Shown here piece by piece: positions 3,501 through 53,348 of a stretch of DNA of 64,000 nucleotides. The stretch lies in assembly GCA_964522395.1 (NCBI GenBank), contig CAZFVN010000002.1:43644-107643 (forward strand), in the 5' to 3' direction. The DNA comes from an uncultured Myxococcales bacterium. GTDB taxonomy: Bacteria > Myxococcota_A > UBA9042 > CAIXZC01. Made by a program: the position numbers and the translations under genes. The notes beneath the pieces were generated by a model, which saw nothing but the letters and a program-made list of their open reading frames with translations, was not told the origin of the DNA and did not search any database. Positions within the stretch are counted from its first letter, which is position 1. Each line of letters begins with the position of its first letter.

Positions 3501-4624
3501 GGAACATCTACGAACCGGCAGGATCCGGCGGCGATGGCGGCGAAGGCTGGGTTGTGGAGAAGAGCCCCAAGGCCGGTATCATCAATGAATCCTATCCCAA
3601 GGGCATCCAGATCTGGATCGACGGAGAAGATGTCACCACCCAGGTAGGGGACCCCAACGGCAAGGGCAGTCCATCCTGGGATGCCCAGAACGGCATGTGG
3701 GGCAAAGATGGATTGGAGTCCTGGTCGACAGGGCAACTCGATCTGACCTCCGTTGCCAATTGGACGCTGGGTGAACACGCGATCCAGGTGAAAGAGACCG
3801 GCGGGGCGGGTGGAGATGTGAAGATGTTTGCCTACGTGGTCTATCCCTTCACCAAATCTGTAGCTCCAGTAAATGATACTTGTGACCAGCCGGTGATGCT
3901 CGACGTTTCTGACGCGGTAACCGTGACGGGTACCACGGAAGATGTCATGGGTAAGATCAAGGCAACTGATGCCAACACCGGGCCGTTCTGTGGCGGTTCG
4001 GGTGGTTCGGATGTGACCTACGGTTTTGTCTTGGACGACTGGCGCAGCCTGAGTATTTCGACGGTCTCTGCATTTACCCCCCGGGTCTACTTGCGCAAGG
4101 ACAGTTGCGCGGATGGCCAGGTGGTAGCGTGCGGTTCCAACCTCATCGATACCGGAGTCCTGGAACCGGGGACCTATTTCCTGGTGGTCGATTCCGATGG
4201 CAATTTGCAAAAGGGCAACTTCTCGCTGACCATTGTGCCCTCACCGCCCGACGCGCCAACCAACGATTCCTGCGCCATGCCCCAGCAATTGGTCTTCCAG
4301 AACAATGTTGCCAAGGCCAGCGGCATGACTCTTTTTTCTAACGACCTTTATTCCGCCGCGTGTGGTGGGGATGGTGCGCCGGAGAATACCTTCACTTTCG
4401 TGGTGCCGCCTGGAACTTCGAAGCTGGATATCGATGTCGACGCAGACTACGACCCGGTTATCTACATGGTCAAGGACAACTGCGAAGGGGGGCTGATAGC
4501 CTGCATTCCAGACAGTTCCTACCAGATGGGCTGGCCGGGACCGGGGACCTATTTCCTCTTCCTGGATGGCAAGACAGGCAATGACAAGGGGCTCTATGAG
4601 TTGTCCGTGAGCCTGGTGCAATAG
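524..4624 (+). CDS. Array paralog A, long form, 1366 aa. Secreted multidomain protein: conserved N-terminal domain, Gly-rich beta-helix-like core, beta-propeller-like insert, 2x C-terminal PPC-like domains.
   Basis: Uninterrupted ORF. Sec signal peptide MRRIGFFSSLLVLLLSLSAQA|SVPAAL. Conserved mature N-terminus AALSYQGFLTDSVGNPVTGTWTVTFGLY. GGAGGTQFAGGGAGGGIVVIGAQS glycine-rich repeats. C-terminal GTYFLVVDSDGN / DADYDP / GTYFLFLDGKT motifs typical of bacterial pre-peptidase C-terminal domains. Confidence 0.85.
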   Translation: MRRIGFFSSLLVLLLSLSAQASVPAALSYQGFLTDSVGNPVTGTWTVTFGLYAGPSGGEVLFEESLDVTTDKGLFSVYLGTPDNPLPVGSFKAGELFLELTVETDDGPVALTPRQQVVSDPYALYAQDAAQLGGEDAEAFVLLQQLPDLCVTPEALPDVLAELGIVGGGLDEEALAAWLLVNGYNACACYADDNVANYLAAAGYEPGPYFTGLYEDLVDSPDLSIYMTSEDVAAALASLGAVLLADGSVALEGDFDFAGFQALNLAVHNSVDPPADPAAGQLWWDLNQVILKVYTGEGWSGIGAGVAADIACPECVDADDVAFTFAAADQKGGAALNVNCFQCINGDEVNFAWAKGVEPGGDAEHALTADTALNAEKAADLECPGCVDVADINPVALASGVVSFDDSKAKLGAATAQEAFEKLAASGGSGAVEGNGTIISYVEQWGLSAYGSATTYMHLMNPASPKVLMHLYADDSASFASSNNLVVAYAFAPNQYSAGAMGNQGENALQVGNPSTFNSGSHIMIHQTRGSDGVSAGTWELNQVKSVNGSTLHLIKPLANDYVTGGSAKAQVVLAASFGNVEIVNGGTLKPSMALAVDGSMGGIVYVRANKMTVKSGGRIDADGMGFQPSPGGYFAPGSSECGVGIPGESEQNCSGGAAGAIQCANAGGGGNKAAGQNGTNHGNCATETEGGAAKGDGNLNTLEFGGAGGTQFAGGGAGGGIVVIGAQSFVVQDGGKVSADGSVATDRGSGGGAGGTIALYADFHQLDGEVTAAGGKGGEVLQWKHIEPKPLTPVTFNTRSHGGGYSPKYLEFWYPHWSGSTIYRYDRNYTPLGDFTSGNNNMMQLWGDPDGTYYTANYGQDRIRKWSDKGNSQIWEYYNGGTTNGVCADEDYVYAMRSSGNEVRKLNKTTGQHVQTFTISNTSSTDGALLCTPGRLYYGRTDGTVYYHDTSSHQQLGSFSAGTNIHNMSFDGQIMYVSPNSSTVSRIQLIEGNIYEPAGSGGDGGEGWVVEKSPKAGIINESYPKGIQIWIDGEDVTTQVGDPNGKGSPSWDAQNGMWGKDGLESWSTGQLDLTSVANWTLGEHAIQVKETGGAGGDVKMFAYVVYPFTKSVAPVNDTCDQPVMLDVSDAVTVTGTTEDVMGKIKATDANTGPFCGGSGGSDVTYGFVLDDWRSLSISTVSAFTPRVYLRKDSCADGQVVACGSNLIDTGVLEPGTYFLVVDSDGNLQKGNFSLTIVPSPPDAPTNDSCAMPQQLVFQNNVAKASGMTLFSNDLYSAACGGDGAPENTFTFVVPPGTSKLDIDVDADYDPVIYMVKDNCEGGLIACIPDSSYQMGWPGPGTYFLFLDGKTGNDKGLYELSVSLVQ

Positions 4625-4670
4625 CGCAGCAAACCGGTGCGGGCTGAGTGTCCGCCGGTGAGGGGTGACG

Positions 4671-8818: not shown

Positions 8819-8935
8819 CTAATGGGTGAGGCAAACGATGGGTACGAAGGGAGTGGGTGGAGCAAATGGGCGAGGCAAATGGGTGAGGCAAGTGGGTGAG
8901 GCAAACGATGGATACGAAGGGAATGGGAGAGGCAC
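8819..8935 (+). repeat. Local tandem duplication of the inter-paralog leader motif, with about 4 copies of GGGTGAGGCAAA-like 12-mers.
   Basis: GGGTGAGGCAAACGATGGGTACGAAGGGAGTGGG occurs at about 8824-8858 and again at about 8894-8928 as ...GATGGATACGAAGGGAATGGG. Intervening copies are TGGGCGAGGCAAA and TGGGTGAGGCAAG. Confidence 0.7.
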
Positions 8936-8937
8936 AA

Positions 8938-11900
8938 ATGGCTAGAAGGCACATCACAGTTGGGCTCACTATCGCAGTATTGGCGCTGACGTGCTTCTCG
9001 CCCTTTTCAGCGCAAGCGGCTGCACCCGCTGCTCTCTCCTACCAGGGGTTCTTGACCGATTCGGTGGGTAACCCGGTGACAGGTACCTGGACAGTGACTT
9101 TTGGACTTTATGGGGAGCCCTCGGGAGGGGACTCGCTCTTCATGGAGTCATTGGATGTGACTACTGACAAGGGGCTCTTCAGTGTCTATCTAGGAACTCC
9201 GGACAATCCGCTTCCGGTGGCTTCATTTGAAACCGGCGAGCTCTTTCTTGAGTTGACGGTGGAGACCGACGATGGCCCCGTTGTGCTGACGCCGCGCCAG
9301 CAGGTAGTGTCGGATCCCTACGCCCTCTATGCCCAGGATTCTGCGCAACTCGGCGGTGAAGATTCTTCATCGTACGTGCTGCTCCAGCAGTTGCCGGACA
9401 TATGTATCACCCCCGAGGCCTTGCCCGACGTTCTGTTGGAGCTGGGAATTACGGGTGGCGGACTGGACGAGGAGGCCCTGGCCGCCTGGTTGCTGGCCAA
9501 TTCATTTGTGGATGAAACCTCTCTTTTGTCCTGGCTCCTGGAAAACGGGTATGAGACTGGTTCGCACTTCTCGGGTCTATACGAGGATCTCATCGATGTT
9601 CCTGACCTCGCCGGCTTCATGACGGCGGAAGATGTGGCCGAGGCCCTTGCTGCCCTGGGTGCGGTGTTACTGGCCGATGGCTCGGTGGCCCTCGATGGGA
9701 ATTTTGATTTTGCTGGCTTCCAGGCACTCAATCTGGCCGTACACAATTCCTTGGAGTCCCCGGAAGAGCCTGTAACCGGTCAGCTCTGGTGGGACCTGAA
9801 CGAGTCGCTGCTGCGGGTCTATACCGGCCAGGCGTGGTCTGGTATCGGCACGGGTGTAGCGGCAGATCTTTCTTGTCCCGAGTGCGTCGAGGCTGATGAT
9901 GTGGCCTTCACTTTCGCCGCGGCTGACCAGAAGGGCGGTGCGGCGCTCAACGTCAACTGCTTCCAATGTATCAGCGAAACTGAAGTGAACTTCGCCTGGG
10001 CCAAGGGGGTTGAGCCTGGCGGTGATGCCGAGCACGCGCTCACTGCCGACACGGCAACCAACGCGCTCACTGCGGACACAGCGGCGGATGTAGATTGTCC
10101 CGGCTGCGTTGATCTCGCAGACGTCAATCCCGCAGTCCTCGTTTCCGACGTCGTCGCCTTTGATGATTCGGTAACCAAGTTGGGGGCCAATACCGTCCAG
10201 GGGGCCTTTGAGAAACTGGCTGCTGTGGGCGGCTCCAGTGCGGTGGAGGGCAATGGCACCATCGTGCCCTACGTCGAGCAATGGGGACTTCCTGCATACG
10301 GGTCAGCCACGACTTATCTGCACCTGATGAACCCGGCTTCGCCAAAGGTCCTGATGCACCTTTATGCTGATGATTCGGCCAGCTTTGCCTCCTCCAATAA
10401 TCTGGTAGTGGCCTATGACTTTGCCCCAAACCAATACTCAGCCGGGGCCATGGGTAACCAGGGGGAGACTGCGCTTCAGGTGGGCAATCCCAGCACTTTC
10501 AACAGCGGCAGCCACATCATGGTGCACCAGACCACCGGAGATGACGGTATTACTGCCGGTACCTGGGAACTCAACCAGGTGAAGTCGGTGAACGGCTCGA
10601 CGCTGCATCTGATCAAGCCTCTCGCTCACGGTTATGTCACAGGGGGAAAGGCCAAGGCGCAGGTCGTGCTGGCGGCCTCCTTCGGCAATGTCGAAATCGT
10701 CAATGGTGGGACGCTCAAACCCTCTTCGCCGCTAGCGGTGGACGGCTCCATGGGCGGAATTGTCTATGTGCGGGCCAATAAGATGACCGTGAAATCCGGA
10801 GGTCGTATCAACGCGGATGGAGCCGGCTTCCAGCCCTCAGCGGGCGGCTATTTCGCCCCCGGTTCTTCGGAGTGCGGGGTTGGTACGGCGGGTGACTCTA
10901 AGCAGAACTGCTCGGGCGGGGCTGCCGGCGCTATCCAGTGTGCCAACGCTGGCGGCGGTGGCAACAAGACCGCGGGCCAGGATGGCTCCAATCACGGCAA
11001 TTGTGCCACTCAGACCGAAGGAGGAGCGTCCAAGGGTGACGGCAACCTCAATACGTTGGAATTCGGTGGTGCTGGTGGTACGCAGTTCGCAGGTGGCGGC
11101 GCGGGTGGTGGAATTGTTGTTATCGGGGCACAGTCTTTTGTAGTGCAGGACGGCGGCAAAGTCACGGCAGACGGAAAGTCGGCCAGCGACCGTGGCTCTG
11201 GTGGCGGTGCCGGCGGAACTATCGCACTCTTCGCAGATTTCCACCAGTTGGACGGGGATGTCTCCGCGGTTGGTGGCGAGGGTGGCGACGTGAAGCAGTG
11301 GAAGTATATTGAGCCTAAGCAACTGACTCCGGTCTCCTTCAATACCCGCTCCCATGGTGGTGGCTATAGCCCCAAGTACCTGGAGTTCTGGTACCCGGAG
11401 TGGTCGGGTTCGACCATCTACCGCTATAGCAGGGAATACGCTCCCCTCGGTGATTTTGCCTCGGGAAACGATCACATGATGCAACTCTGGGGCGACCCTG
11501 ACGGCACCTACTACACGATCAATTGGAGCCAGGACCGGGTGCGGAAATGGTCGGACAAAGGGGACAATCAGTTATGGGAGTACAATATCGGCAGTACCGC
11601 CGGGGCTGTTTGCACCGACGAAACCTACGCCTACGCCATGCGGCACAGCGGCAACGATGTGTGGAAGCTGAACAAGGCCACGGGCCAGCACGTGCAGACC
11701 TTCTCACTGAACAACACGGCAAGTATCTACGGTGGCCTGGTCTGTACTCCGGGGCGCCTCTACTACGGGCAGTCGGGTGGCAGTGTCTATATACACGACT
11801 CATCATCGCATCAGCAATTGGGCTCGTTTACGGTGGGCACCAGCATCAACAATATGTCCTTCGATGGTCAGGTAATGTACGTTTCGCCCAACTCCAGTAC

Positions 11901-13050: not shown

Positions 13051-13092
13051 AGTAGCAACCGGTGTGGACTCAAAGCCGCACCAGAGGAGTTG

Positions 13093-17211: not shown

Positions 17212-17281
17212 CGAAGCAACCGGTGCGGTTTTTTTGATGGGTGAGGCAAATGATGAGTAAGAACGGAAAGGGTGGTTCGAT
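17212..17281 (+). promoter_or_regulatory. D/E junction. It holds the post-stop motif GCAACCGGTGCGG plus a T7 tract, the leader GGGTGAGGCAAA, an 11-codon uORF (17250-17285, MMSKNGKGGSI) overlapping the main ATG as ATGA, and the RBS GGTGG.
   Basis: Read directly from the sequence. The uORF stop TGA at 17283-17285 overlaps ATG 17282-17284. Confidence 0.5.
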
Positions 17282-20200
17282 ATGATAAGGAAAGTTAGCT
17301 GTGGTGCCGGTTTTGCGATGTTCGTACTGACCGCTCTTATGTCTGTTACGGCCTGGGCTGCGGCTCCGGCAGCGCTCTCTTATCAGGGCTTTCTCACCGA
17401 CTCGGTTGGCAACCCGGTAACGGGGACGTGGACGGTCACCTTTGGCCTCTACGCCGAGCCATCTGGCGGCGATGCCCTCTTCCAGGAGTCCCTGGACGTA
17501 ACCACCGACAAGGGTCTTTTCAGCATCTACCTGGGAACTCCGGATAATCCCCTGCCGTTGGCCGAGTTTGAAGCCGGGCAGCTCTTTCTGGGGCTGACGG
17601 TAGAAACTGATGACGGCCCCGTGGCGCTGACTCCACGGCAGCAGGTCGTATCGGACCCCTATGCTCTCTATGCTCAGGATGCCGCCCAACTTGGTGGCCA
17701 GGATTCGTCCGCTTTTGTATTGCTCCAGCAATTGCCTGACCTGTGCATTACGCCTGAGGCATTGCCAGAAGTGCTGGCCGAGTTGGGTGTTGTCGGGGGC
17801 GGCCTGGACGAAGAGGCATTGGCCGCCTGGCTCCTGATAAATGGCTACAACGCTTGCGCCTGTTACGCGGATGACAACGTGGAGGACTATCTGGTTGCTG
17901 CCGGCTATGAGCCTGGACCACATTTCTCCGCTCTCTACGAGGATCTCCTCGATGCCCCCGATCTCACCGGCTTCATGACTGCCGAGGATGTTGCGGAGGC
18001 GCTGTCCAATCTGGGAGCGGTGCTCCTGGCCGACGGTTCAGTAGCTTTGGCAGGAGACTTCGATTTCGCCGGTTTCCAGGCTCTCAATCTGGCTGTGCAC
18101 AACTCGTTGGAGCCGCCGGTGGAACCGGTGGCAGGTCAGCTCTGGTGGGATCTCACCGAGGGTCTACTGAAGGTCTATACGGGCCAGGCCTGGTCTGGTA
18201 TTGGCACCGGTGTGGCAGCAGATCTCTCTTGCCCCGGTTGCGTGGATTCAGACGATGTGGCCTTTACTTTTGCCGCCGCTGACCAGAAGGGGGGGGCCGC
18301 GCTTAACGTCAACTGCTTCCAGTGTATCAGCTCGGCCGAAGTGAACTTCGCCTGGGCCAAGGCCGTTGAACCGGGTGGGGCTGCAAAGCACTCTGTGACC
18401 GCCGACACAGCTTTCCTCGCCGAAGATTTGGAGTGCCCGGGTTGCGTTGGTCTCGCCGACATCGACGCTGCCGCTCTCGCCTCGGAGGTCGTGAGCTTCG
18501 ATGACTCCAAAGCCAAACTCGGCGCCGACACTGTCCAGGGAGCATTTGAGAAACTGGCCGCCGCAGGTGGCTCCAGCGCGGTGGAGGGAAATGGGACCAT
18601 TGTCCCCTACGTTGAGCAATGGGGTCTGCCAGCCTACGGCACGGCAACTACCTATTTGCATCTTATGAATCCTGCCACCCCGAAGGTGCTCATGCATCTC
18701 TACGCCGACGATTCGGCGAGCTTCGCATCTTCCAACAACCTGGTAGTGGCCTATGCTTTTGCCCCCAACCAGTATTCAGCCGGGGCCATTGGCAACCAGG
18801 GTGAGACGGCGCTGCAGGTAGGCAACCCCAGCACCTTCAATAGTGGCAGCCACATCATGATCCATCAGACCGTGGGTGGAAATGGGACCACCGGTGGAAC
18901 CTGGGAGTTGAACCAGGTCAAGTCGGTGAATGGCTCGACCCTGCATCTCATCAAGCCGCTGGCCCATAGCTTTGTCACCGGTGGCACTGCGAAGGCCCAG
19001 GTGGTCCTGGCTGCCTCCTTCGGCAATGTCGAGATCGTCAACGGTGGGACGCTGAAGCCCTCTTCCCCACTGGCGGCCGATGGTTCCATGGGTGGCATCG
19101 TCTATGTGCGAGCCAACAAAGTCATGGTCAAGTCTGGCGGCAAGGTTGTGGCCGATGCCATGGGTTTCCTGCCCACTACTGGTGGTAACTACGCGCCCGG
19201 TTCCTCCGAGTGTGGTCTCGGGGTTCCGGGCAACTCCCAGCAGAACTGTAGTGGCGGTTCCGGTGGCTCCGAGTATTGCGCCAATGCAGGTGGCGGCGGC
19301 AACAAAACCGCAGGTGACAACGGCAAGACCTACGGCAATTGTCCGGGTGAGGCCGAGGGCGGTGCCAGCAAGGGCAACGCCAGTCTCACCACTCTGGAGT
19401 TTGGAGGGGCGGGCGGTAGCCGACACAACCTTGGCGGCACTGGCGGTGGCATTGTAGTCATTGGTGCACAGTCGATCATCGTTCAGGAGGGAGGCAGCGT
19501 TTCCGCCAATGGGTCTTCCCCGGTGAATGGTGGCTCTGGTGGTGGCGCCGGTGGCACCATCGCGCTGCTGGCCGATTTCCACCAATTGGATGGCCAGGTG
19601 GAGGCTTCTGGCGGTGCCGGTGGTACAGGTCAGTCTTGGAAGTTTATTGAGCCTGAAGAAGTGTCCAGCGTCTCCTTCGACACCCGCTCCCATGGTGGTG
19701 GGTATAGCCCCAAGCACAAAGAGTACTGGTATCCGGAGTGGGCTGGCAGTACCGTCTATCGCTTCAACGATCAATATCAGCAAGTCGGGTCCTTCAACAG
19801 TGGCGACTCGCACATAATGCAGATTTGGGGTGATACGGACGGAACCTACTACACCGCTAACTGGAGCCATGACCGGATTCGCAAGTTCCAGGACAAGAGC
19901 GGTAGCCAGATCTGGGAGTACAGCACGGGGGCCACGGCCGGTGGTGTTTGCCACGATGGGACCTATCTCTATGCGATGCGTGAGAGTGGCCAGAGTGTTT
20001 ACAAACTCAATCCCGCCAATGGGCAGTTGGTCGAAACTATCGATCTGCCGAACATCCCCAATAGCTTGTACGGCGGTCTAGTTTGCATTCCTGGACGTAT
20101 CTACTATGCCAATACCGGTTCTCAGGTACGCTACTATGATCTAAAGACCAAACAACAGCTAGGCCTCTTCGATAGTGGGGTGGCCGGGTACAATACATCT

Positions 20201-21391: not shown

Positions 21392-21441
21392 TCTCAGTGG
21401 GTGAGGCAAAAGATGAATGTGAACAGGATGGGTGGTTATTC
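21392..21441 (+). promoter_or_regulatory. E/F junction leader. It holds GGGTGAGGCAAAAGATG and an 11-codon +1-frame uORF (21413-21448, MNVNRMGGYSC) overlapping the main ATG at 21442.
   Basis: Read directly from the sequence. The same motif order as the D/E junction. Confidence 0.5.
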
Positions 21442-24400
21442 ATGTTAGAGAATCTCAACCGCAGTGCTGGCTTTGTGACGTTCATTCTATCCTTGATTAT
21501 CTCTTTCTCGGCGCATGCTGCGGCTCCCGCAGCACTCTCCTACCAGGGTTTCCTGACGGACTCGGTGGGGAATCCTGTGTCCGGGACCTGGACGGTTACC
21601 TTCGGCCTCTACGATGAGCCGTCGGGTGGCGATTCTCTCTTCATGGAGTCTCTGGACGTGACGACAGATAAGGGGCTCTTCAGTGTCTACCTGGGGACGC
21701 CGGACAATCCGCTTCCGGTGGCCTCTTTTGAAACCGGCCAGCTCTTTCTGGAGTTGACGGTGGAAACGGATGATGGCCCTGTGGCCTTGACGCCGCGGCA
21801 GCAGGTGGTGTCGGATCCATATGCACTCTACGCCCAGGATGCGGCCCAACTCGGAGGTGAAGATGCCGCGGCATTTGTGCTGCTGCAACAACTGCCCGAA
21901 CTCTGCATTACTCCCGAGGCTCTGCCCGATGTCCTAGTGGAACTTGGCATCACCGGTGGCGGGTTGGATGAAGCGGCACTGGCCGCGTGGCTGCTGGCCA
22001 ATTCCTATGTAGACGAGACTTTGCTTGCAACGTGGCTACTTGAAAATGGCTACGAGGTTGGAGCCCACTTTTCCGGTCTCTACGAAGACCTGATTGATGC
22101 CCCGGACCTTTCTGGTTTCATGACCGCGGATGATATTGCCCAGGCACTTTCAGATCTTGGGGCGGTGCTGCTGGCGGATGGTTCTGTAGCGCTGGAAGGT
22201 GACTTTGACTTCGCTGGCTTCCAGGCGCTCAATCTAGCTGTACACAACTCCTTGGAGCCACCCGATGAGCCTGTTGCAGGGCAACTCTGGTGGGACCTCA
22301 ATGATTCGTTGCTGCGAGTCTACACCGGGGAAACGTGGTCGGGAATCGGTACTGGAGTAGCGGCTGACCTATCCTGCCCGGAGTGTGTTGAGGCTGATGA
22401 CGTGGCCTTCACCTTTGCCGCGGCTGACCAGAAGGGCGGTGCAGCTCTAAATGTAAACTGCTTTCAGTGCATCAGCGAGAGTGAAGTGAGCTTCTCCTGG
22501 GCCAAGGGCGTGTCTCCTGGCGGGGATGCGGAGCACGCGCATACCGCTGACAGTGCGACCACCGCGCTGTCGGCCGAGACTGCAGAAGATGTGAATTGCC
22601 CCGGTTGCGTGGACCTGGTGGACATCAATCCCGCGGCCCTGGCCGGTTCGGTGGTGAGCTTCGATGACTCCAATGCCAAACTGGGGGCCAATAACCTCCA
22701 GGCTGCGGTCGACAAACTTGCCGCGGTTGGCGGTAGCAGCGCGGTGGAGGGGAATGGCACCATCGTCCCCTACGTAGAGCAGTGGGGACTGCCGGCATAT
22801 GGCACGGCAACGACCTATCTCCACCTCATGAATCCCACAACACCAAAGGTGCTTATGCATCTCTATGCCGACGATTCGGCGAGCTTTGCATCTTCCAATA
22901 ACCTGGTTGTGGCCTATGCGTTTGCTCCCAATCAGTATTCAGCGGGGGCCATTGGCAATACCGGGGAGACTGCACTGCAGGTCAGCAACCCCAGCACCTT
23001 CAACAGCGGTAGTCACATCATGATTCATCAAACCATCGGTGGCAACGGCACCACCGCAGGGACCTGGGAGCTGAATCAGGTGAAGTCGGTCAATGGTTCA
23101 ACGCTGCATCTTATCAAGCCGCTGGAGGATAGCTTTGTCACCGGTGGTGGAGCGAAAGCGCAGGTTGTTCTTGCCGCGTCTTTTGGCAATGTGGAAATCG
23201 TAAATGGTGGAACCCTGAAACCCTCCAGCCCCCTGGCAGCAGACGGTTCCCAAGGTGGCATCATTTACGTACGAGCCAACAAGGTAGTGGTCAGTTCGGG
23301 GGGCCGAATTGATGCCGACGGTGCTGGTTTTGACCCGACGCCTGGCGGGTACTTCGCACCTGGTTCATCTGAGTGTGGCCTGGGGGTCCCCGGCGATTCG
23401 CAGCAGAACTGCTCTGGTGGTGCTGGTGGCGGAAAGTTCTGCGCCAACGCTGGTGGTGGAGGCAACAAAACCGCAGGGGAAGATGGAGCAAATTACGACA
23501 ACTGTCCCACGGAGGCCAGCGGAGGCGCAGAGAAGGGCGATAGTAATCTGTCCACCCTGGAGTTCGGCGGTGCGGGAGGTAGCCAGTACGGATTGGGTGG
23601 CGCTGGTGGCGGCATTGTAGTTATCGGCGCTCAGTCCTTTGTCGTGAAAGATGGCGGCAAGGTTTCGGCCAATGGTATGGCGGCCGAGATCGGTGGGTCA
23701 GGTGGTGGTGCTGGCGGGTCGATTGTTCTCATGGCCGATTTTCACCAGTTGGATGGTGAGGTCGCGGCCGCAGGTGGCAAGGGCGGAGAAGGCGTTACCT
23801 GGAAGTTTATTGATCCAGAAGAGGTTGCCTCCGTGTCCTTCGATACTCACTCCTACGGTGGCGGCTATAGTTACAAACACAAGGAGTTCTGGTACCCGGA
23901 ATGGTCAGGCACCACGGTCTATCGATTCAACGAGAGCTATCAGTCCGTGGGGTCCTTCAATTCCGGTTCCGGGGATATGATGGGTTTCTGGGTGGATGCG
24001 GATGGCTCCTACTATACGGCCAACTGGGGTCAGGGAGTGGTGCGAAGATGGCAAGAGAAGAGTAACAATCAGATGTGGCAGCACAGCATTGGAGCCGATG
24101 CGGGAGGTGTTTGCACCGACGGTACGTATGTCTACGCCATGCGCAACGGCAGCAATACAGTTTACAAGCTCAATCGAGCCAACGGCGCGGAGATCGAGAC
24201 CTTCTCTCTTCCCAACATCAGCGGCACTCTCTACGGTGGACTTCTCTGCATCCCGGGTCGCCTCTACTTTGGCAACACTGGTAGCAACCTGAACTACTAC
24301 CATCTGGCGACCAAGCAACTGATTGGCAACTTCACGACGGGTAGCGGCGTCCACAACCTCTCTTTCGACGGGCAGTTCATGTATACGTCGCCAAACAGCT

Positions 24401-25554: not shown

Positions 25555-25605
25555 TTTCAACGGGTGAGCCAATTGATGAGCACGACCCAAATGGATGGTT
25601 CAAAT

Positions 25606-28600
25606 ATGCGAAGGAAACTTAGCCGTAGTGTCTCAATTGCCTTGTTCTTGCTGACCGCACTCTGGTCATTCTCGGTTCTTGCAGCGGCCCCGGCGGCATT
25701 GTCCTACCAGGGGTTCTTGACCGATTCGGTAGGTAACCCTGTAAGTGGAACCTGGACGGTGACGTTTGGGCTCTTTGCCGCGCCTGGAGGTGGGGCCGCG
25801 CTCTTTGAGGAGTCGCTGGATGTGACCACCGATAAGGGACTCTTCTCGGTCTACCTGGGGACTCCTGACAATCCCTTGCCAACCGCCTCCTTCGAAACCG
25901 GCATGCTCTTCTTGGAGCTGACGGTGGAGACCGACGACGGGCCCGTGGCGCTGTCGCCCAGGCAGCAGGTAGTGTCGGATCCCTACGCTCTCTATGCTCA
26001 AGATGCTGCACAACTTGGTGGTGAAAATGCCGCCGCGTTCGTGCTTCTGCAGCAACTTCCTGACCTTTGCATTACACCCGAGGCTCTCCCCGATGTTCTG
26101 GAGGAGCTTGGCATCACCGGGGGCGGGCTTGATGAAGAAGCCCTGGCCGCGTGGCTACTGGCCAATGCTTTCTTGGATGAGGCGGCTCTTTCCGAGTGGC
26201 TATTGGCCAATGGATATGACCCCTGCGCCTGTTACGGCGACGAGGGCGTGGCTGCCTATCTGGCTGTCGAGGGCTTCATTGCAGGACCACATTTCTCGGG
26301 CCTCTATGAAGATCTTATAGACCCCCCGGACCTCTCCGGGTTTATGACCTCGGATGATGTAGCAGAGCTACTCTCTGACCTCGGCGCGGTGCTCCTGGCT
26401 GATGGCTCGGTGGCCCTTGAAGGGCATCTCGATTTCGCCGGCTTCGAAGCGCTCAACTTAGCCGTGCACAATTCAGAGGATGCTCCCGAGGAACCGGCAG
26501 TTGGGCAGCTCTGGTGGGATCTGAGCGAGGCTCTCCTCAAAGTCTACACCGGCGAGGCGTGGTCAGGGATTGGCACCGGCGTGGCGGCTGATATTGCCTG
26601 TCCAGAATGTGTCGACGCGGATGATGTGGCCTTTACCTTCGCCGCCGCTGACCAGAAAGGCGGGGCGGCGCTCAATGTCAACTGCTTCCAGTGCATCAAT
26701 GCCGACGAAGTGAGCTTCGCCTGGGCCAAAGGAGTGCTTCCAGGCGGGGATGCGGAGCATGCACTGACAGCGGACCTGGCAACCACCTCCCTTACCGCCG
26801 AAACGGCTTCAGATGTGGAATGCCCTGGTTGCGTTCAGGCTGGCGACATCGACCCCGCTGCCCTCGATGCCAAATTGGTGGCCTTCGATGATGCCGGTGC
26901 CGAATTGGGAGCCAACACCGTCCAAGCTGCCGTTGAGAAGCTGGCAGCCGCCGGTGGATCCGAAGCCAACGAAGGCAATGGGACAGTCATCTCCTACGAA
27001 CAGCAGTGGGGCCTGCCGTCCTACGGTCACGCAACAGAATATGTCCACCTGTTCAATCCGACCCAACCGAAGGTCATGGCCTATCTCTACGCCAGCGAAT
27101 CGACTAGTTTTGCTACCTCCAACAATCTGGTGGTGGCATACAACCATACACCCAACCAGTACAGTGAAGTTGCCCAGGGAACGGCGGGTGACACCGCTTT
27201 GGAGGTGAACAACCCCTCAATCTTCAACTATGGTAACCACATCATGGTTCACCAGACCGTAGGGAAGAACGGCAATGGCACGGACGCCGGGAATTGGGAA
27301 TTGAACCAGGTCATCGGTGTCAACGGAAACACCGTCTTGCTGGCCAAACCGCTGCTCAACACCTACTCCTCTGTCGATTGTGACGAGGGTCGGGCACAGG
27401 CAATTATCGCGGCTTCATACAACCTGCTGGAAGTGGTCAACGGTGGCCACGTCTACCCATCTAATTCGCTCTCTTCCACTTCGGAGACAAGAGGGGGCAT
27501 TGTCTATATCCGGGCCCGCAAGGTTGTCGTGAAGGCCGGTGGCAAGATCGATGCAGACAATCGTGGTTTTGAGGGTGGTGATTGGTATAGTTGCACCAAC
27601 GAGGCGGAGAAGGGCCATTCGGAATGTAGTACTTGTGAGAATAGCAACCTCATGGGCCAAAGCGCCAACTGTTCGGGCGGCGGTGGGAGCTACATCGGAT
27701 GTTCTAGTCCAGCCTATGGAGGTGCTGGCGGTGGGGGCAATAAGGCCGCTGGCCAGAAAGGGGGCGGTAGTCAACAGGCCTCTGGCGGCAACGCCAAAGG
27801 CGATGCTCTGTTAAACACTCTGCACTTTGGCGGGGCAGGTGGTAAATCGTACGCGCGTAGCGGCGGGCATGGCGGCGGCATGGTCGTATTGGGTGCGGAA
27901 ACCATCATAGTGGAAGCGGGCGGAACCATTTCCGCGAACGGAGCCAACGGTTCCTCCACCGGGAGTGGCAGTCAATCTGGCGGTGGTGGTGGCGCCGGCG
28001 GCACGGTAGCGCTCTTTGCCAATCAAGTGATAAATGAGGGGACCATCTCAGCCACCGGCGGTACAGGTGGTACCGGTCCCAAGGGCAATGGTGGCGACGG
28101 CGGCGAGGGTTGGGTGGTGCAGATAGACCCCATTCCAGGCGTCGTCAACGAATCCTACCCCAAGGGCATCGAATTCTGGGTCGACGACAAGAACATCACC
28201 CCGGAAGTTGGAGACCCCAACGGAAAGGGCGACCCATTCTGGGATGCCGATGGTGGCAAGTGGGGCAAGGATGGTCTGACCGCGTGGTCCACTGGAGCCC
28301 TCGACTTGACCTCCTTCGCCAACTGGACCCTGGGCGAGCACAAGATTGAACTCAAGGAGACCGGCGGCGCCGGCGGTGAGTTGAAGCTCTATATGTACAT
28401 TATCTATCCCTTTACCAAGGCCTCAGCCCCGGTGAACGATACGTGTGAGCAGCCCGTAATGATGGACCTATCGGGCCCAGTCACACTCACTGGTACCACT
28501 GAGGATATCATGGGCAAGATCAAGGCCACCGATGCCAATAATGGGCCTTTCTGTGGTGGCTCCGGCGGCCCCGACCTGGTTTATGGATTCACTCTTAACG

Positions 28601-29187: not shown

Positions 29188-29238
29188 TCCTACTGGGTGG
29201 AGCAAAAAATGAGCAGGAACAGAAATGGGTGGTTCAAC

Positions 29239-32200
29239 ATGCTAAGGAAGATTAACCGTAGTGCTGGCTGTTTGCTGTTCGTGTTTGCCGTTATGTTGTC
29301 CTCTTCGGCCCAGGCAGAGGCTCCGGCCGCGCTCTCATACCAGGGGTTTCTCACCGATTCGGTGGGCAATCCAGTGACGGGGACCTGGACGCTCTCGTTC
29401 GGACTCTACTCGGTGCCTGTGGGCGGCTCTCCACTCTTTGAGGAATCTCTCAACGTGACTACCGATAAGGGGCTCTTCTCTGTCTACCTGGGGACCCCGG
29501 ACAATCCGCTGCCGACGGATTCGTTTAGTAGCGGTCAGCTCTTCCTGGAATTGACCGTGGAAACCGATGACGGTCCCGTGGCGTTGACTCCCAGACAACA
29601 GGTTGTCTCCGATCCCTACGCCATTTTCGCCCATGATGCGGAGCAACTTGGGGGAGAAGATTCCTCTTCCTACGTGCTGCTCCAACAACTTCCCGACCTC
29701 TGTATTACCCCTGAGGCGCTTCCCGATGTGCTGGAAGATTTGGGGATTGGCGGTGGCGGTCTCGATGAGGAGGCACTGGCTGCCTGGTTATTGGCCAACT
29801 CTTTCTTGGATGAGGTATCCCTTTCTGCATGGTTGCTGGCCAATGGGTACGACCCCTGTGCCTGCTATGGTGACGATGGAGTGGCTGCCTACCTCGCTGC
29901 CGAGGGGTTTGTCGCGGGACCCCATTTTTCCGGACTCTACGAAGACCTCGTCGACCCTCCGGACCTCTCCGGTTTCATGACCTCAGATAATGTTGCTGAG
30001 TTGCTCTCAGACCTCGGCGCGGTGCTCCTGGCCGATGGCTCGGTGGCCCTTGATGGGTCTCTCGATTTCGCCGGTTTTGAGGCGCTCAACTTAGCGGTAC
30101 ACAACTCGGAGGATGCTCCAGCGGAACCGGCAGTGGGGCAACTCTGGTGGGACCTTAACGAAGCTCTCCTCAAAGTCTACACTGGCGAAGCGTGGTCGGG
30201 GATTGGCACCGGCGTGGCGGCTGATATTGCTTGCCCAGAGTGTGTCGACGCGGATGACGTGGCATTTACCTTCGCAGCCGCTGATCAGAAGGGCGGGTCG
30301 GCGCTCAATGTCAACTGCTTCCAGTGCATCAATGCCGACGAAGTAAGCTTCGCTTGGGCCAAGGGCGTTTTGCCAGGCGGAGATGCGGAGCATGCCCTCA
30401 CGGCTGACACCGCAACCAGCGCCCTTACTGCCGACACCGCGGCTGATGTCGAGTGCCCCGGCTGCGTCAACGCCGGTGACCTGGCTGCAGATGCAGTCCA
30501 TTCGCAAAAGGTCGTCTTCGACGACACCAAAACTCAATTGGGCGCCAGCACGGTGCAAGGAGCCATTGAGAAGATGGCGGAAGATGGCGGCGGGAATGCC
30601 GTGGAAGGATTGGGGACCATCGTTCCCTACGTCCAACAGTGGGGTCTGCCCGCCTACGGCAAGGCCGAAAACCACATCCACCTCATGAATCCCTCAACGC
30701 CCAAGGTAGTGGCCCATGTCTATGCCAGCGAATCGACCAGCTTCGCCACCTCCAACAACCTGGTGGTGGCCTATAACCACAATCCTAACCAGTATAGCCC
30801 TGTCTCGCAGGGAACCGCCGGGGATAATGCGCTGGAAGTAGGTAATCCATCTATCTTCAACTACGGCAATCACATTCTCGTGCACCAGTCGGTGGGCACC
30901 GGTGGCAACGGCACCGGCGCTGGTAACTGGGAGTTGAATCAGGTAGTTGGCGTCAACGGCAATACGTTGTTGTTGGCGAAGCCGCTGAACAATACGTACA
31001 GCTCTGCTGATTGCAAGCAGGGGAGGGCGCAGGCGGTTGTGGCGGCCTCTTACAACCTCCTCGAGGTTACTTCCGGCGGAAAGATCTACCCGAGCGAGAA
31101 CTTCCATGGCGATGAGGTCCGAGGGGGCATCGTCTATGTTCGGGCTCGCAAGATTGTAGTTAAGTCTGGGGGCTCCATCGAGGTAAATGGGCGTGGCTTC
31201 GAGGGGGGGGATAACTACGAGTGTAACCAACCCAGTGAGCAGGGCCATTCGGAGTGTAGTGTTTGCGACAACCAGTGGAGTTCATCTCCTAATTGTTCTG
31301 GTGGCGGCGGTGGTGGTCACGGCTGTCATCATCCCGCCTACGGTGGTGGCGGTGGCGGCGGGAACAAAGCGGCTGGCGGCGCAGGGACCGGAAGTCAGAA
31401 AGGAAGTGGAGGTAACTCCAAAGGCGACGGCTCTCTCAGCGCCATACACATGGGCGGTGGCGGCGGCATGGTTTATTCGCAACCTGGCGGTCGCGGTGGC
31501 GGAATCATCGTTCTTGGTGCAGAAACAATTATCGTTGAGCCGGGAGGCTCCATTTCGGCCAACGGCACCAACGGCGGCAACACTGGCAGCGGCCACCAGG
31601 CTGGCGGCGGCGGTGGTGCTGGCGGCACCGTGGCTCTCTACGCTGAACAGGTCGTGAACTCAGGTACCATATCGGCCACCGGAGGGAAGGGCGGAACCGG
31701 ACCCCAGGGCAACGGCGGTGACGGTGGGGAAGGTTGGGTAGTACAGCTCGACCCCGTTTCCGGCGTGGTCAATGAATCCTATCCCAAGGGGCTTGAACTT
31801 TATGTTGATGGCCAGGAAGTAACCCCGCTGGTAGGCGATCCCAATGGCAAAGGCGCTCCCTACTGGGATGCCGAAAATGGCAAATGGGGCAAGGATGGGC
31901 TGACTGCCTGGAACACCGGTCCATTGGACCTGACTTCTGTCGCTAACTGGACCCTGGGTGAGCATACCGTTGCGCTGCACGAAACGGGCGGCGCAGGGGG
32001 TGAGTTGAAGCTCTACCTCTACGTCATCTATCCCTATTCGAAATCGAGTCCGCCGGTGAATGATACCTGCGACCAGCCGGTCATGATGAATCTCGCCGGA
32101 CCGGTAACAATGACCGGCTCCACGGAAGATATCATGGGCAAACTGAAAGCTACCGATGCCCACTCCGGACCCTTCTGTGGTGGCTCAGGAGGACCAGAGG

Positions 32201-32811: not shown

Positions 32812-32888
32812 CTCTAGTGGGTGAGACATTTCTAACGGGTGAGGCTTCAATGGGTGAAACAGAAGATGACTGGAAGAGGTGGTTCAAT

Positions 32889-35800
32889 ATGCTAGGGAAA
32901 CTCAACCGTAGTGCCGGTTTCGTGTTGTTCGTGCTGACCGTGCTGGCGTCCTTCTCAGCTCAGGCCGCGGTCCCCACGGCGCTCTCATATCAGGGTTTTC
33001 TAACTGACTCAGTGGGCAACCCGGTGACCGGCACGTGGACCGTCACTTTCGGGCTCTTTGCCGATCCCAACGGCGGTGCGCCCCTCTTTGAGGAGTCCCT
33101 GGATGTGACCACGGATAAAGGGCTCTTCTCGGTCTACCTGGGAACTCCGGACAATCCGTTGCCACTTGCCTCCTTCGAGTCGGGAACGCTCTTCCTGGAA
33201 TTGACCGTTGAAACTGACGATGGCCCGGTTTCATTGACTCCCCGGCAGCAAGTTGTCTCCGATCCTTTCGCACTCTACGCTCAGGACGCAGCTCAACTTG
33301 GAGGTGAGGACGCATCGGCGTTTGTGCTGCTGCAGCAATTGCCCGATCTATGCGTTACTCCGGAGGCCCTACCAGACGTATTGACAGAGCTTGGGATTAC
33401 CGGTGGAGGTCTTGACGAAGAGGCACTTGCCGCCTGGCTGCTCGCCAACTCCTTTGTCGACGAGGTGTCCCTGGCGGCCTGGCTGCTGGCCAACGGGTAT
33501 GATCCGTGCGCCTGCTATGGCGATGAGGGTGTGGCCGCCTATCTGGCTGCCGAGGGATTCATGGCAGGGCCGCATTTCTCTGGCCTCTATGGGGACCTTG
33601 TTGACTCACCCGATCTCTCGTCATATGTGACAGCCGAAGATGTGGAGCAGGCACTCTCAGACCTCGGTGCCGTCCTCCTCGCCGATGGCTCGGTTGCTCT
33701 CGAAGGGAACCTCGATTTTGCAGGCTACCAGGCCCTCAATCTGGCGGTTCACAATTCGGAAGAGGCACCGGAAGAACCAGTCGTTGGGCAGCTCTGGTGG
33801 GACCTCACTGAGGGCCTGCTCAAGGTCCATACGGGTGATGGATGGTCAGGAATTGGCACTGGCGTGGCGGCAGACATCGCCTGCCCAGAATGTGTCGATG
33901 CCGACGACGTAGCGTTCACTTTTGCCGCCGCAGATCAGAAGGGCGGGGCTGCACTCAATGTCAATTGCTTCCAGTGCATCAATGCTGATGAGGTGAGCTT
34001 CGCATGGGCCAAAGGAGTGCTACCGGGCGGAGATGCTGAACATGCGCTGACTGCAGACACCGCGGTCAACGCGCTAACTGCCGAAACCGCAGGTGACGTC
34101 GAGTGCCCCGGTTGTGTAGATGCCGGTGATCTGGCCGTTGGTGCCATGCACTCGGACAAGGTCGTCTTCGACGACACCAAGACCCAAATCGGTGCAGGTT
34201 CGGTGCAGGCGGCCCTGGAGCACGCCCTGTCGGCTGGAGCCAGCGGTGCGGTAGAAGGAAACGGGACCATTGTTCCATTTGTAGAGCAGTGGGGTCTGCC
34301 GGCTTACGGTGAGGCCACCACATACGTCCACCTCATGAATCCCAGCCAGCCTAAAGTCCTGGCCCATCTCTATGCCGGGGAATCGAGCAGCTTCTCCACA
34401 TCCAATAACCTCGTGGTGGCTTACAGCTTCGCGCCCAACCAATACTCTGGCGGTGTCAACGGTACCGCTGGAGAGCAGGCTTTGCAGGTAACCAACCCCT
34501 CGAGCTTCTCCGTGGGAGCCCACATTCTCATTCATCAGACCGTAGGCACCGGGGGCAACGGCACCAATGCCGGCCAGTGGGAGCTCTCTCAGGTCCTGGG
34601 CATCGAGGGTTCGACGCTTCTGCTGGCAAAGGAGTTGCAGCATACGTTCACTTCTTGCGGCAATGATTGTGGTTACGCGCAGGCTGTGGTGGCTGCCTCA
34701 TACAATCAGTTGGAGGTGGTCAACGGCGGGACTATCAGTCCTTCAATGAATGCCCATGACCAGGGGGACAAGAAGGGCAGTATCATCTTCATCAGAGCTC
34801 GCAAGATCGTTCTGAAGACGGGCGGTAAGATCCAAGCCAATGGTTATGGTCCCTACAATAGGGGTGATACGTGGGGAGGCGACTACCGAGGCGAAACAGC
34901 GTCGTCGCAGTGCAAAATTGATAATGGAAGCTGGGGTCCGGCCAACAACTGCTCGGGTGGTGGCGGTGGTGGCAAGCACATAATTGAGTGGTCAAATACA
35001 TGCGGTGGGGGGGGCGGTGGAAACAAGACGGCTGGACAGAAAGGCAAGGGGAACAGCAACAATGGCGGCCACGGAGGCTCTGCATGGGGTGATGCAAACG
35101 CCGATATATTGACCTTTGGAGGGTCCGGCGGAAGTTCCTATTATGGTCGAGCCGGATGGGGTGGAGGCCTCATCGTTCTGGGAGCGGAGACCATCATCGT
35201 CGAAAATGGTGCTTCGATCACTGCAAACGGAAATACGGGCGATTGTCCATGGGGTAATCATGGTTCCCATGGTGGCGGTGGCGGCGGAGCCGGTGGATCT
35301 ATTGTCCTCTTTGCCAAGGAGCTGCTCAACAGCGGAACTGTAACCGCTGACGGTGGCGCCGGGAAGCACTGCGGCGATGCCGTTAACATCGGCGGCAACG
35401 GTGGCGACGGCTGGGTCATTCACAAGGACCCCGTTGACGGCACTGTCAATGAGAGTTTCGCGAAGGGTGTTGAACTCTGGCTCGATGGTGAGAATGTTAC
35501 TGCTCAAATTGGGGATCCCAATGCCAAGGGGGCCCCGGCCTGGAATGCGGATGATCAGAACTGGGGGGCCGATGGCCTTGCCGGGTGGTCTACCGGGCCG
35601 CTGGATTTGACTGCCGCGGCCAATTGGACGTTGGGCGAACATAAGATCCAGCTCAAAGAGACCGGTGGTGCGGGTGGCGACGTCAAACTCTTCACCTACA
35701 TCATCTATCCCTTCACCAAGTCGACTCCGCCGGTAAACGATACTTGCGACCAGCCAGTGTTGCTGGATGTGTCGGGCCCGACCACGGTAACCGGCACCAC

Positions 35801-51003: not shown

Positions 51004-51046
51004 ATTTCGTCCTCGCTGGTGGCCGGCGGCGGACCTCATCCTGGGT

Positions 51047-53188: not shown

Positions 53189-53348
53189 CCTTCCCTCCCT
53201 CGACACGAGCAGCACGAGCGCGCACTTCGCGTTAGTTTGGAGTATACATTGCGCGCCTGTACGGGTCAACGAAAAGCGCCGCTTCGCTGCTGGCGTCCGC
53301 AACGCAAAGCTGGTAGCGTGGAAACCGACGAAAAAGGTGGAGGACTGC

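Follow-up and report, generated by a model that had tools for sequence, protein, structure and literature searches.

A conserved leader of about 45 bases, equipped with its own Shine-Dalgarno (SD) sequence and start codon, precedes 7 of the 13 tandem paralogs of a head-to-tail gene array in an uncultured Myxococcales bacterium. The array takes up positions 1-40076 (+ strand) of the stretch of DNA analysed here, 64,000 nucleotides of contig CAZFVN010000002.1 that are referred to below as the window. Six of the junctions that carry the leader lie within the window (B/C, D/E, E/F, F/G, G/H and H/I) and the seventh (X2/X3) lies just upstream of it. The explanation that we favour, with a probability of roughly 0.45 and on the basis of sequence, is that the leader acts as a translationally coupled upstream open reading frame (uORF) that contains a second, internal SD sequence.

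According to this explanation, the module would consist of two SD-plus-ATG units, specific to this lineage and devoted to translation initiation. Ribosomes would load at the first SD sequence (GGGTGAGG), initiate at an upstream ATG 8 nt further on and translate a short uORF whose peptide sequence would be irrelevant. Termination 4-11 nt inside the main open reading frame (ORF) would then be followed by re-initiation at the main ATG (termination-reinitiation coupling), which would additionally be served by its own strong SD sequence (GGGTGG) within the uORF. In those paralogs where leader and gene are fused in frame, the same flow of ribosomes would produce a precursor about 10 residues longer. 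The module probably originated by slippage duplication of a 13-nt SD-ATG unit (TGGGTGAGGCAAA), and inheritance or recombination would then have carried it to a part of the tandem paralogs. Translation of the uORF and a positive sign of the coupling are what we infer here from the features described below.

Anatomy and reading frames of the leader

Ten distinct leaders from three organisms were compared, seven of them from this array (X3, C, E, F, G, H and I, named after the paralogs that they precede) and three found in two related metagenomic organisms (L096 18225-18296, L101 9920-10001 and L004 1367-1488). The order of elements in the module is the stop codon of the preceding paralog, 7 nt, the SD-like motif 1 (GGGTGAGG), the upstream ATG, about 17 nt, the SD-like motif 2 (GGGTGG), 6 nt and the main ATG with its signal peptide, and the consensus reads GGGTGAGGCAAAaGATGAGTAcGAACaG-AATGGGTGGttC-aAtATG. 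The spacing is strikingly regular: 7 nt separate the preceding stop from GGGTG in eight of the ten leaders, GGGTGAGG stands 8 nt before the upstream ATG in all ten and this ATG comes, again in ten out of ten leaders and in all three organisms, exactly 14 nt after the first G of GGGTG. The longer form of motif 1, GGGTGAGGCAAA, is exact at 8824, 8894, 17239 and 21399; variants are found at 8855, 8868, 8881, 8925, 25562 and 29195, and more diverged copies at 32819, 32837 and 32852. When two mismatches were allowed, motif 1 gave 20 matches in the window compared with 7.0 +/- 2.5 in shuffled sequences, none of 100 shuffles reached 20, and half of the matches (10/20) fell at the junctions.

A sequence-only reading of this DNA had described six junctions with a two-motif pattern. 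All six carry the module, at the positions and with the peptides proposed, and the enrichment of motif 1 supports the pattern, whereas the downstream half, GGGTGGTTCAA(C/T)ATG, is a consensus and not a literal sequence: motif 2 is exact only at G/H, differs by one mismatch at D/E and H/I and by three at E/F, contains an indel at F/G and is poor at B/C. Each leader holds between two and six SD-like copies, and its base composition is G 40%, A 30%, T 19% and C 10.5%. Being purine-rich, C-poor and unstructured, the leader would be well suited to ribosome loading.

In seven of the ten leaders, the ATG linked to motif 1 opens an out-of-frame uORF that runs without interruption as far as the main start and ends 4-11 nt inside the main ORF. 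The overlap is 4 nt, in the form ATGA, at X3 (uORF of 21 codons) and E (11 codons), 7 nt at F, I and the leader of gene 6 in L096, L096g6 (11, 9 and 11 codons, respectively), 8 nt at C when read from its first unit (35 codons) and 11 nt at L004 (35 codons). The uORF peptides are unrelated in sequence across leaders. The sequence-only reading had limited the uORF to the D/E and E/F junctions; both of these were verified (17250-17285, with the TGA in ATGA, and 21413-21448, with a TAG and a 7-nt overlap), and uORFs are also present at I (32866-32895) and C (8838-8945). Its suggestion of coupling is strengthened insofar as a uORF overlapping the start recurs in further junctions and in other organisms. 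The same reading had placed an in-frame extension alongside the uORF, and the upstream in-frame ATGs do exist at 8908 (C), 25576 (G), 29209 (H) and 32850 (I), but this arrangement turned out to be secondary and not conserved.

Fusion in frame with the paralog characterises two of the ten leaders, G and H (extended N-termini MSTTQMDGSNMRRK and MSRNRNGWFNMLRK, respectively), and it arose by different 1-nt insertions. The second unit of C is likewise fused, by a 1-nt insertion after motif 2 as in G. A third frame, which starts at an ATG or GTG abutting motif 1 ('GEAKDEYEQNGWFNM') and to which the in-frame ATG of I belongs, is uninterrupted and in frame in four leaders (X3, F, I and L096g6), and it is broken in the other six, by stops in E, L004 and L101 and by frameshifts in G, H and C. 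Because the fusions result from different insertions and the third frame is broken in 6/10 leaders, the in-frame extension is not a conserved protein feature; the uORF is the prevalent state and the in-frame versions are secondary.

These observations bear on the proposal that the functional product is an N-terminally extended signal peptide made from an alternative upstream start, the uORF versions being decayed copies. The in-frame ATGs of C, G, H and I and the third frame that is open in X3, F, I and L096g6 would agree with it, and gene callers picked such starts for P0006, P0036, P0038 and P0041. The frame, however, is not conserved, for the reasons just given; part of the extensions is acidic (MGETEDDW..., MDTKGMGEAQ), unlike a typical signal-peptide n-region; Pfam shows no extended-signal-peptide family; and some 60 homologues from other species have M-K/R as their very first residues. 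The proposal is consequently most improbable. An ESPR-type N-terminal extension was also considered and set aside, with no relevant Pfam match for five extended N-termini (E <= 10) and no conservation of the frame. The public gene calls of these paralogs are themselves inconsistent in their choice of start: P0039 is called at the main ATG, P0036 at the internal leader ATG, P0006, P0038 and P0041 at the ATG or GTG abutting motif 1, and P0001 at a position 12 residues inside the signal peptide. It follows from this inconsistency that N-termini and signal peptides are mis-annotated in several database entries.

The use of all three frames can also be accommodated by a frame-agnostic 'start-site array', in which the 13-nt SD-ATG unit (TGGGTGAGGCAAA) would gain and lose copies through slippage and, since 13 is not a multiple of 3, rotate the upstream starts through the three frames. 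Selection would then keep the stops just inside the main ORF, or a fusion, so that ribosomes of any frame are funnelled to the true start, and the expression level of individual paralogs would be adjusted through copy number and 1-nt indels. This scheme is decidedly unlikely.

Three properties of the frames bear on the strength of the uORF signal. Given the composition of the leader, the chance that 10 codons stay open is about 0.52 and the chance for 34 codons is about 0.11. Among leaderless starts of the family, a stop within three codons after the ATG is found in the +1 frame in 17/29 cases (Met-Lys giving rise to ATGA) and in the +2 frame in 6/29. Finally, the second codon of the main ORF reads ATA in E, TTA in F, CTA in H and I and GTA in L096g6, with a purine next to it in every case. 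Across these five paralogs the first base of codon 2 takes all four nucleotides and the amino acid varies while the TA-purine stop of the uORF is kept, and NTA accounts for only 8.7% of the Leu/Ile/Val codons in the array genes. Taken together, the open-frame odds, the stop statistics and the codon 2 pattern favour, as far as sequence can tell, selection that keeps the end of the uORF at the main start.

The uORF would probably be initiated de novo at motif 1. The gap between the stop of the preceding paralog and the uORF ATG is 21 nt, and a distance of 21 nt almost abolished termination-reinitiation in experiments with E. coli and Haloferax (PMC10666635).

Several points weigh against a coupled uORF. 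Stops in the +1 frame are common without any leader (the 17/29 above), which makes the overlap statistic only moderately strong, and the leaders are related, not independent, and small in number. The uORF of the L101 leader does not reach the main ATG and stops 19 nt short of it. The duplex energies of the two motifs (-8 to -12 kcal/mol for motif 1 and -8.5 to -18.6 kcal/mol for motif 2) refer to a generic 16S tail and not to that of the organism. Motif 2 looks strong enough to act alone, and for this reason coupling may not be needed. Moreover, 5 of the 12 inter-paralog junctions of this array are leaderless and, as most family members also do without the leader, its role, whatever it is, is dispensable. 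If coupling is nevertheless real, the output of the main ORF would fall upon mutation of the upstream ATG to ATA or of motif 1 from GGGTGAGG to CCCTCTCC.

Conservation, distribution and RNA-level properties

The identity of the leader between paralogs is 74.5% (compared among E, F, G, H and the related L096 copy). For the same set, identity is 63% in the signal-peptide region and, in the N-terminal domain, 49% at third codon positions and 89% at positions 1 and 2. With third positions at only 49%, the paralogs are old enough for neutral sites to be nearly saturated, and yet the leader has been kept. The flanks of the leader display no matching homogenisation, which makes a recent conversion tract an unlikely explanation, and no codon (3-nt) periodicity of conservation was detected in either upstream frame. 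The sequence pattern thus supports conservation that acts at the nucleotide level and goes beyond the neutral expectation, as the sequence-only reading had anticipated. Within the leader, motif 1 varies least, and conservation reaches beyond the SD and ATG positions.

The distribution of the leader is narrow. The inter-paralog junctions of the array fall into three discrete types: type 1, a short spacer with an SD sequence (X3/A and I/J); type 2, a GC-rich hairpin followed by an SD sequence (A/B and C/D); and type 3, the leader. In 1.28 Mb of loci, the leader profile matches paralog junctions only, always on the + strand. A sister organism with a 9-paralog array has the leader at none of its 8 junctions, another related organism has it at 2 of 9, and a more distant relative possesses only two paralogs with short junctions; the roughly 60 homologues from other species open directly at their signal peptides. 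Two contigs of JGI sample 3300072015 (95,319 and 50,706 bp) have long junctions of 99, 138 and 174 nt, and further look-ups for independent leaders returned only organisms already sampled or leaderless arrays. The leader is therefore lineage-specific. Because it is missing at 5 of the 12 junctions here and at all junctions of several related arrays, the idea that it coordinates expression along the whole array is weakened. Among near-identical contigs from different samples of one population the leaders do not vary, and phase variation by homopolymer indels was rejected on this ground. The leader is tied to one type of signal peptide in E-I and L096g6, yet it also occurs with three other types.

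Such a patchy distribution could be that of a relic with little or no function of its own, left behind in a tandem cluster by slippage and by recombination units that span the junctions. That the leader is found only at some junctions of three closely related organisms would fit, as would its duplicated or degenerate state in C, L004 and L101 (in L101 the second unit has lost its ATG) and the fact that all three frames are used or broken among the copies. There is also precedent for junction-spanning units of evolution in the S. aureus lpl cluster (PMC2568036), and clustered substitution tracts between samples suggest ongoing gene conversion. Against a relic, the leader is far better conserved than the neighbouring synonymous sites and the adjoining signal peptide, it is attached to at least four signal-peptide types and, with flanks that are not homogenised, a recent conversion tract could have covered no more than about 46 nt. 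On balance, such a relic is quite unlikely.

At the RNA level, the sequence-only reading had raised the prospect of a regulatory structure, and this did not materialise. Single-sequence folds of seven junctions were no better than shuffled sequences (z-scores from -0.9 to +1.0), and the alifold consensus of six leaders with 60-70 nt of coding sequence reached only -4.2 kcal/mol without covariation (covariation term +0.11). Folding that takes G-quadruplexes into account placed no G-quadruplex in any minimum free energy structure of the leaders, and Rfam 15 gave 0 matches at the gathering score over the whole window. The unpaired probability of the upstream ribosome binding site (RBS) was 0.21-0.54 and that of the main RBS 0.18-0.56, without a consistent difference. 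A scan for promoters and terminators over 16-34 kb yielded nothing at the junctions except a weak hairpin followed by a T-run at D/E; uORF and main ORF lie on the same strand, 23-100 nt apart. Two further candidates were discarded. An attenuator based on a leader or arrest peptide is not supported, given uORF peptides that vary in length and sequence, the lack of 3-nt periodicity and the lack of supported RNA structure, and neither are CsrA-type sites, whose GGA motifs proved upon inspection of the sequences not to be conserved from leader to leader.

The sequence-only reading had also proposed a shared RBS or standby site. The first half of this idea is supported, since both motifs can pair with the generic anti-SD tail at workable spacing; the unmasking of a standby site is not, with accessibility that is not consistently different between the two sites. 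A broader version is that the leader serves as a tandem SD, or 'standby', loading pad that raises the local concentration of ribosomes for the main start, the upstream ATG and the uORF being incidental. The 2-6 SD-like copies per leader, among them a 13-nt tandem array, the unstructured, G/A-rich and C-poor nature of the region and the fact that motif 1 is what varies least all suit a pad. A pad, on the other hand, needs neither the fixed 14-nt offset of the ATG in 10/10 leaders nor the preservation of a TAR stop after the main ATG, and the main RBS is not so consistently more occluded than the upstream one as to require standby. We regard it as unlikely.

The remaining possibility is a trans-acting regulator, either a protein or a small RNA, that binds mRNA or DNA at the direct repeats GGGTG-N3-CAA and exerts paralog-specific control. 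The fixed spacing of the repeats (31 nt in E, F, G and L096; 13 nt in C) and the conservation beyond the SD and ATG positions would be expected of a binding site. Against this candidate site, the junctions contain nothing that resembles a promoter, the GGA motifs expected at CsrA sites are not shared by the leaders and the motifs are fully accounted for as SD sequences. A regulator is very unlikely.

Individual junctions and the surrounding array

At D/E, motif 1 (GGGTGAGG, 17239..17246, + strand) is an exact copy with a duplex energy of -9.2 kcal/mol towards the generic anti-SD tail, and it serves the upstream ATG of the putative 11-codon uORF MMSKNGKGGSI (17250..17285, +). This uORF contains a second ATG at 17253, and its TGA lies within the ATGA of the E main ATG at 17282. 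Motif 2 (GGGTGGTT, 17270..17277, +; -16.0 kcal/mol, generic tail) is located inside the uORF, 6 nt before the main ATG. Between the D stop and the leader, and at this junction only, there is a remnant of the type-2 hairpin (AACCGGTGCGGTT) followed by T7 (17218..17237, +) that looks like a terminator in the consensus scan. D/E is thus a hybrid junction made of the 5′ half of a type-2 hairpin, a T7 run and the leader. The arrangement resembles a scar left by recombination or insertion, and E could in part be insulated from D by it.

The B/C leader (8824..8945, +) has a duplicated unit with six SD-like copies, at 8824, 8855, 8868, 8881, 8894 and 8925, and includes four copies of the 13-nt tandem repeat TGGGTGAGGCAAA (8854-8905, +). 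Its 35-codon uORF (+) ends in a TAG that gives the 8-nt overlap with the main ATG at 8938, and the ATG of the second unit, 8908 (+), is in frame. In the E/F leader (21399..21448, +), motif 1 is at 21399, motif 2 at 21430 and the main ATG at 21442, and the uORF on the + strand reads MNVNRMGGYSC*. The F/G leader (25562..25608, +) starts with the motif 1 variant at 25562 and has its upstream ATG at 25576 and its main ATG at 25606, fused in frame by a 1-nt insertion after motif 2. The insertion is before motif 2 in the fused G/H leader (29195..29245, +; motif 1 variant at 29195, upstream ATG at 29209, motif 2 at 29227, main ATG at 29239), where a 6-codon uORF on the + strand still begins at an internal ATG, 29225, and has its TAA at 29243-29245. 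The H/I leader (32819..32895, +) comprises motif 1 copies at 32819, 32837 and 32852, the in-frame ATG at 32850, motif 2 at 32877 and the main ATG at 32889, and its uORF (+) encodes MTGRGGSIC* with a 7-nt overlap.

The GC-rich stem-loop of type 2 junctions (GCAACCGGTGCGG ... CCGCC) lies between the stop codon and the SD sequence of the next paralog, at 4625-4670 (A/B) and 13051-13092 (C/D) in the window and also at junctions of L003, L093, L096 and L101. The stem is kept in nine examples from four organisms, with compensatory changes in 2 of 8 pairs.

The paralogs of the array encode proteins of 1,190-1,385 residues with canonical Sec-type signal peptides and pairwise amino-acid identities of 60-82%, and searches of Pfam and of PDB sequences gave no Pfam domain and no solved relative for the family. 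Two contigs from other samples match the window at 100% and 99.96% identity; the samples with identical contigs are SUTE22-1, SAMN10231913 and SAMN10231914. The upstream part of the array was read from an other-sample contig that extends the window (L099 1-13217). It raises the number of paralogs from the 10 counted in the sequence-only reading to 13 (X1, X2, X3 and A-J), the window starting inside the third, and a small Dicty_CTDC-repeat gene precedes them all. At least six long forms (~1,360-1,385 aa) are followed by four short forms (~1,190-1,223 aa). In the more distant relative, one long and one short paralog come after a gene of the Dicty_CTDC-repeat type (L103 8921-17728), which suggests a two-gene ancestral state that was later expanded.

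Substitutions between near-identical contigs from other samples are confined to tight clusters inside the coding regions of the paralogs. These are found at 24289-24301 and 34981-35018 of the window in comparison with L100, at 4114-4468, 9222-9324 and 13117-13198 of L093 in comparison with L094/L095, and at 18810-18973 and 22408-22571 of L096 in comparison with L097, where the same three changes occur in two adjacent paralogs. Their clustering points to gene conversion from one paralog to another or to contigs assembled as chimeras of them. In some samples of the sister organism, a block of ~3.9 kb with three minus-strand genes (434, ~163 and 165 aa) replaces most of one paralog (L094 1548-5501 and L106 8360-11560 compared with L093 1718-5800), and it may be a mobile-element insertion or a deletion variant.

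A GltG-like gene neighbours the array and, like the names borne by the homologues, puts the organism with the uncultured Myxococcota / 'Deltaproteobacteria'. Downstream, the window contains another cluster of predicted extracellular proteins (46609-56087), with very large minus-strand ORFs (46609-51183 and 51047-53629) rich in MopE-type metal-binding motifs and thrombospondin type 3 repeats and a gene for a lamin-tail-domain protein (53337-56087).

Relation to known systems

Arrest and leader peptides such as ErmCL, TnaC and SecM work through a conserved peptide together with alternative RNA structures. The leader resembles them in having a short ORF immediately upstream of, or overlapping, the start region of a gene, and differs in that its uORF peptides are unrelated and RNA structure is unsupported. 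Ribosome standby sites (the de Smit and van Duin model; tisB) serve an RBS that is structured and occluded. The leader is likewise an unstructured, purine-rich stretch upstream of a start that would be able to hold 30S subunits, but no RBS occlusion is predicted at its junctions.

Among tandem clusters, the S. aureus lpl paralogs have a unit of evolution that spans the junction (Tsuru and Kobayashi 2008, PMC2568036). The two clusters have in common tandem secreted or lipoprotein-like paralogs and intergenic regions that, with the flanking ORF ends, come in discrete types; the leader itself occurs with at least four signal-peptide types, and the likeness concerns the junction types alone.

Closer parallels come from positive coupling. 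In Sinorhizobium meliloti, uORFs that overlap the main ORF by up to 13 nt act in this way, as exemplified by uORFs 1, 9, 14 and 16 and the glnK uORF (PMC13285730), and the leader ORF of E. coli iraD does likewise (PMC5574718). The leader shares with them a short ORF, its own SD sequence and a stop that overlaps the main start (ATGA or up to 13 nt). In those systems the peptide is unimportant and uORF translation promotes that of the main ORF, and the leader would follow them in both respects. It differs from them in its location at internal junctions of a long same-strand array and not in a 5′ leader, in its repetition at ~75% identity before 7 paralogs and in a main start that has its own strong SD sequence; and, unlike iraD, no sequestering RNA structure is predicted for it. 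Termination-reinitiation is likewise known at overlapping gene pairs (ATGA or TGATG; PMC6728339, PMC10666635). The 4-11 nt overlaps of the leader are within the workable range for reinitiation, although its upstream partner is a mini-ORF of 9-35 codons and not a gene.

Coupling mediated by a uORF is, then, already known in bacteria, and what would be new is its repetition along one gene array. If the uORFs are used, the array would represent a clean natural case of uORF coupling at the internal junctions of a very long paralog operon, with a module that has been copied, duplicated and frame-shifted between paralogs. The leaders would then offer a natural series, made up of overlaps of 4, 7, 8 and 11 nt, in-frame fusions and one 19-nt gap, in which the geometry of reinitiation could be set against expression.

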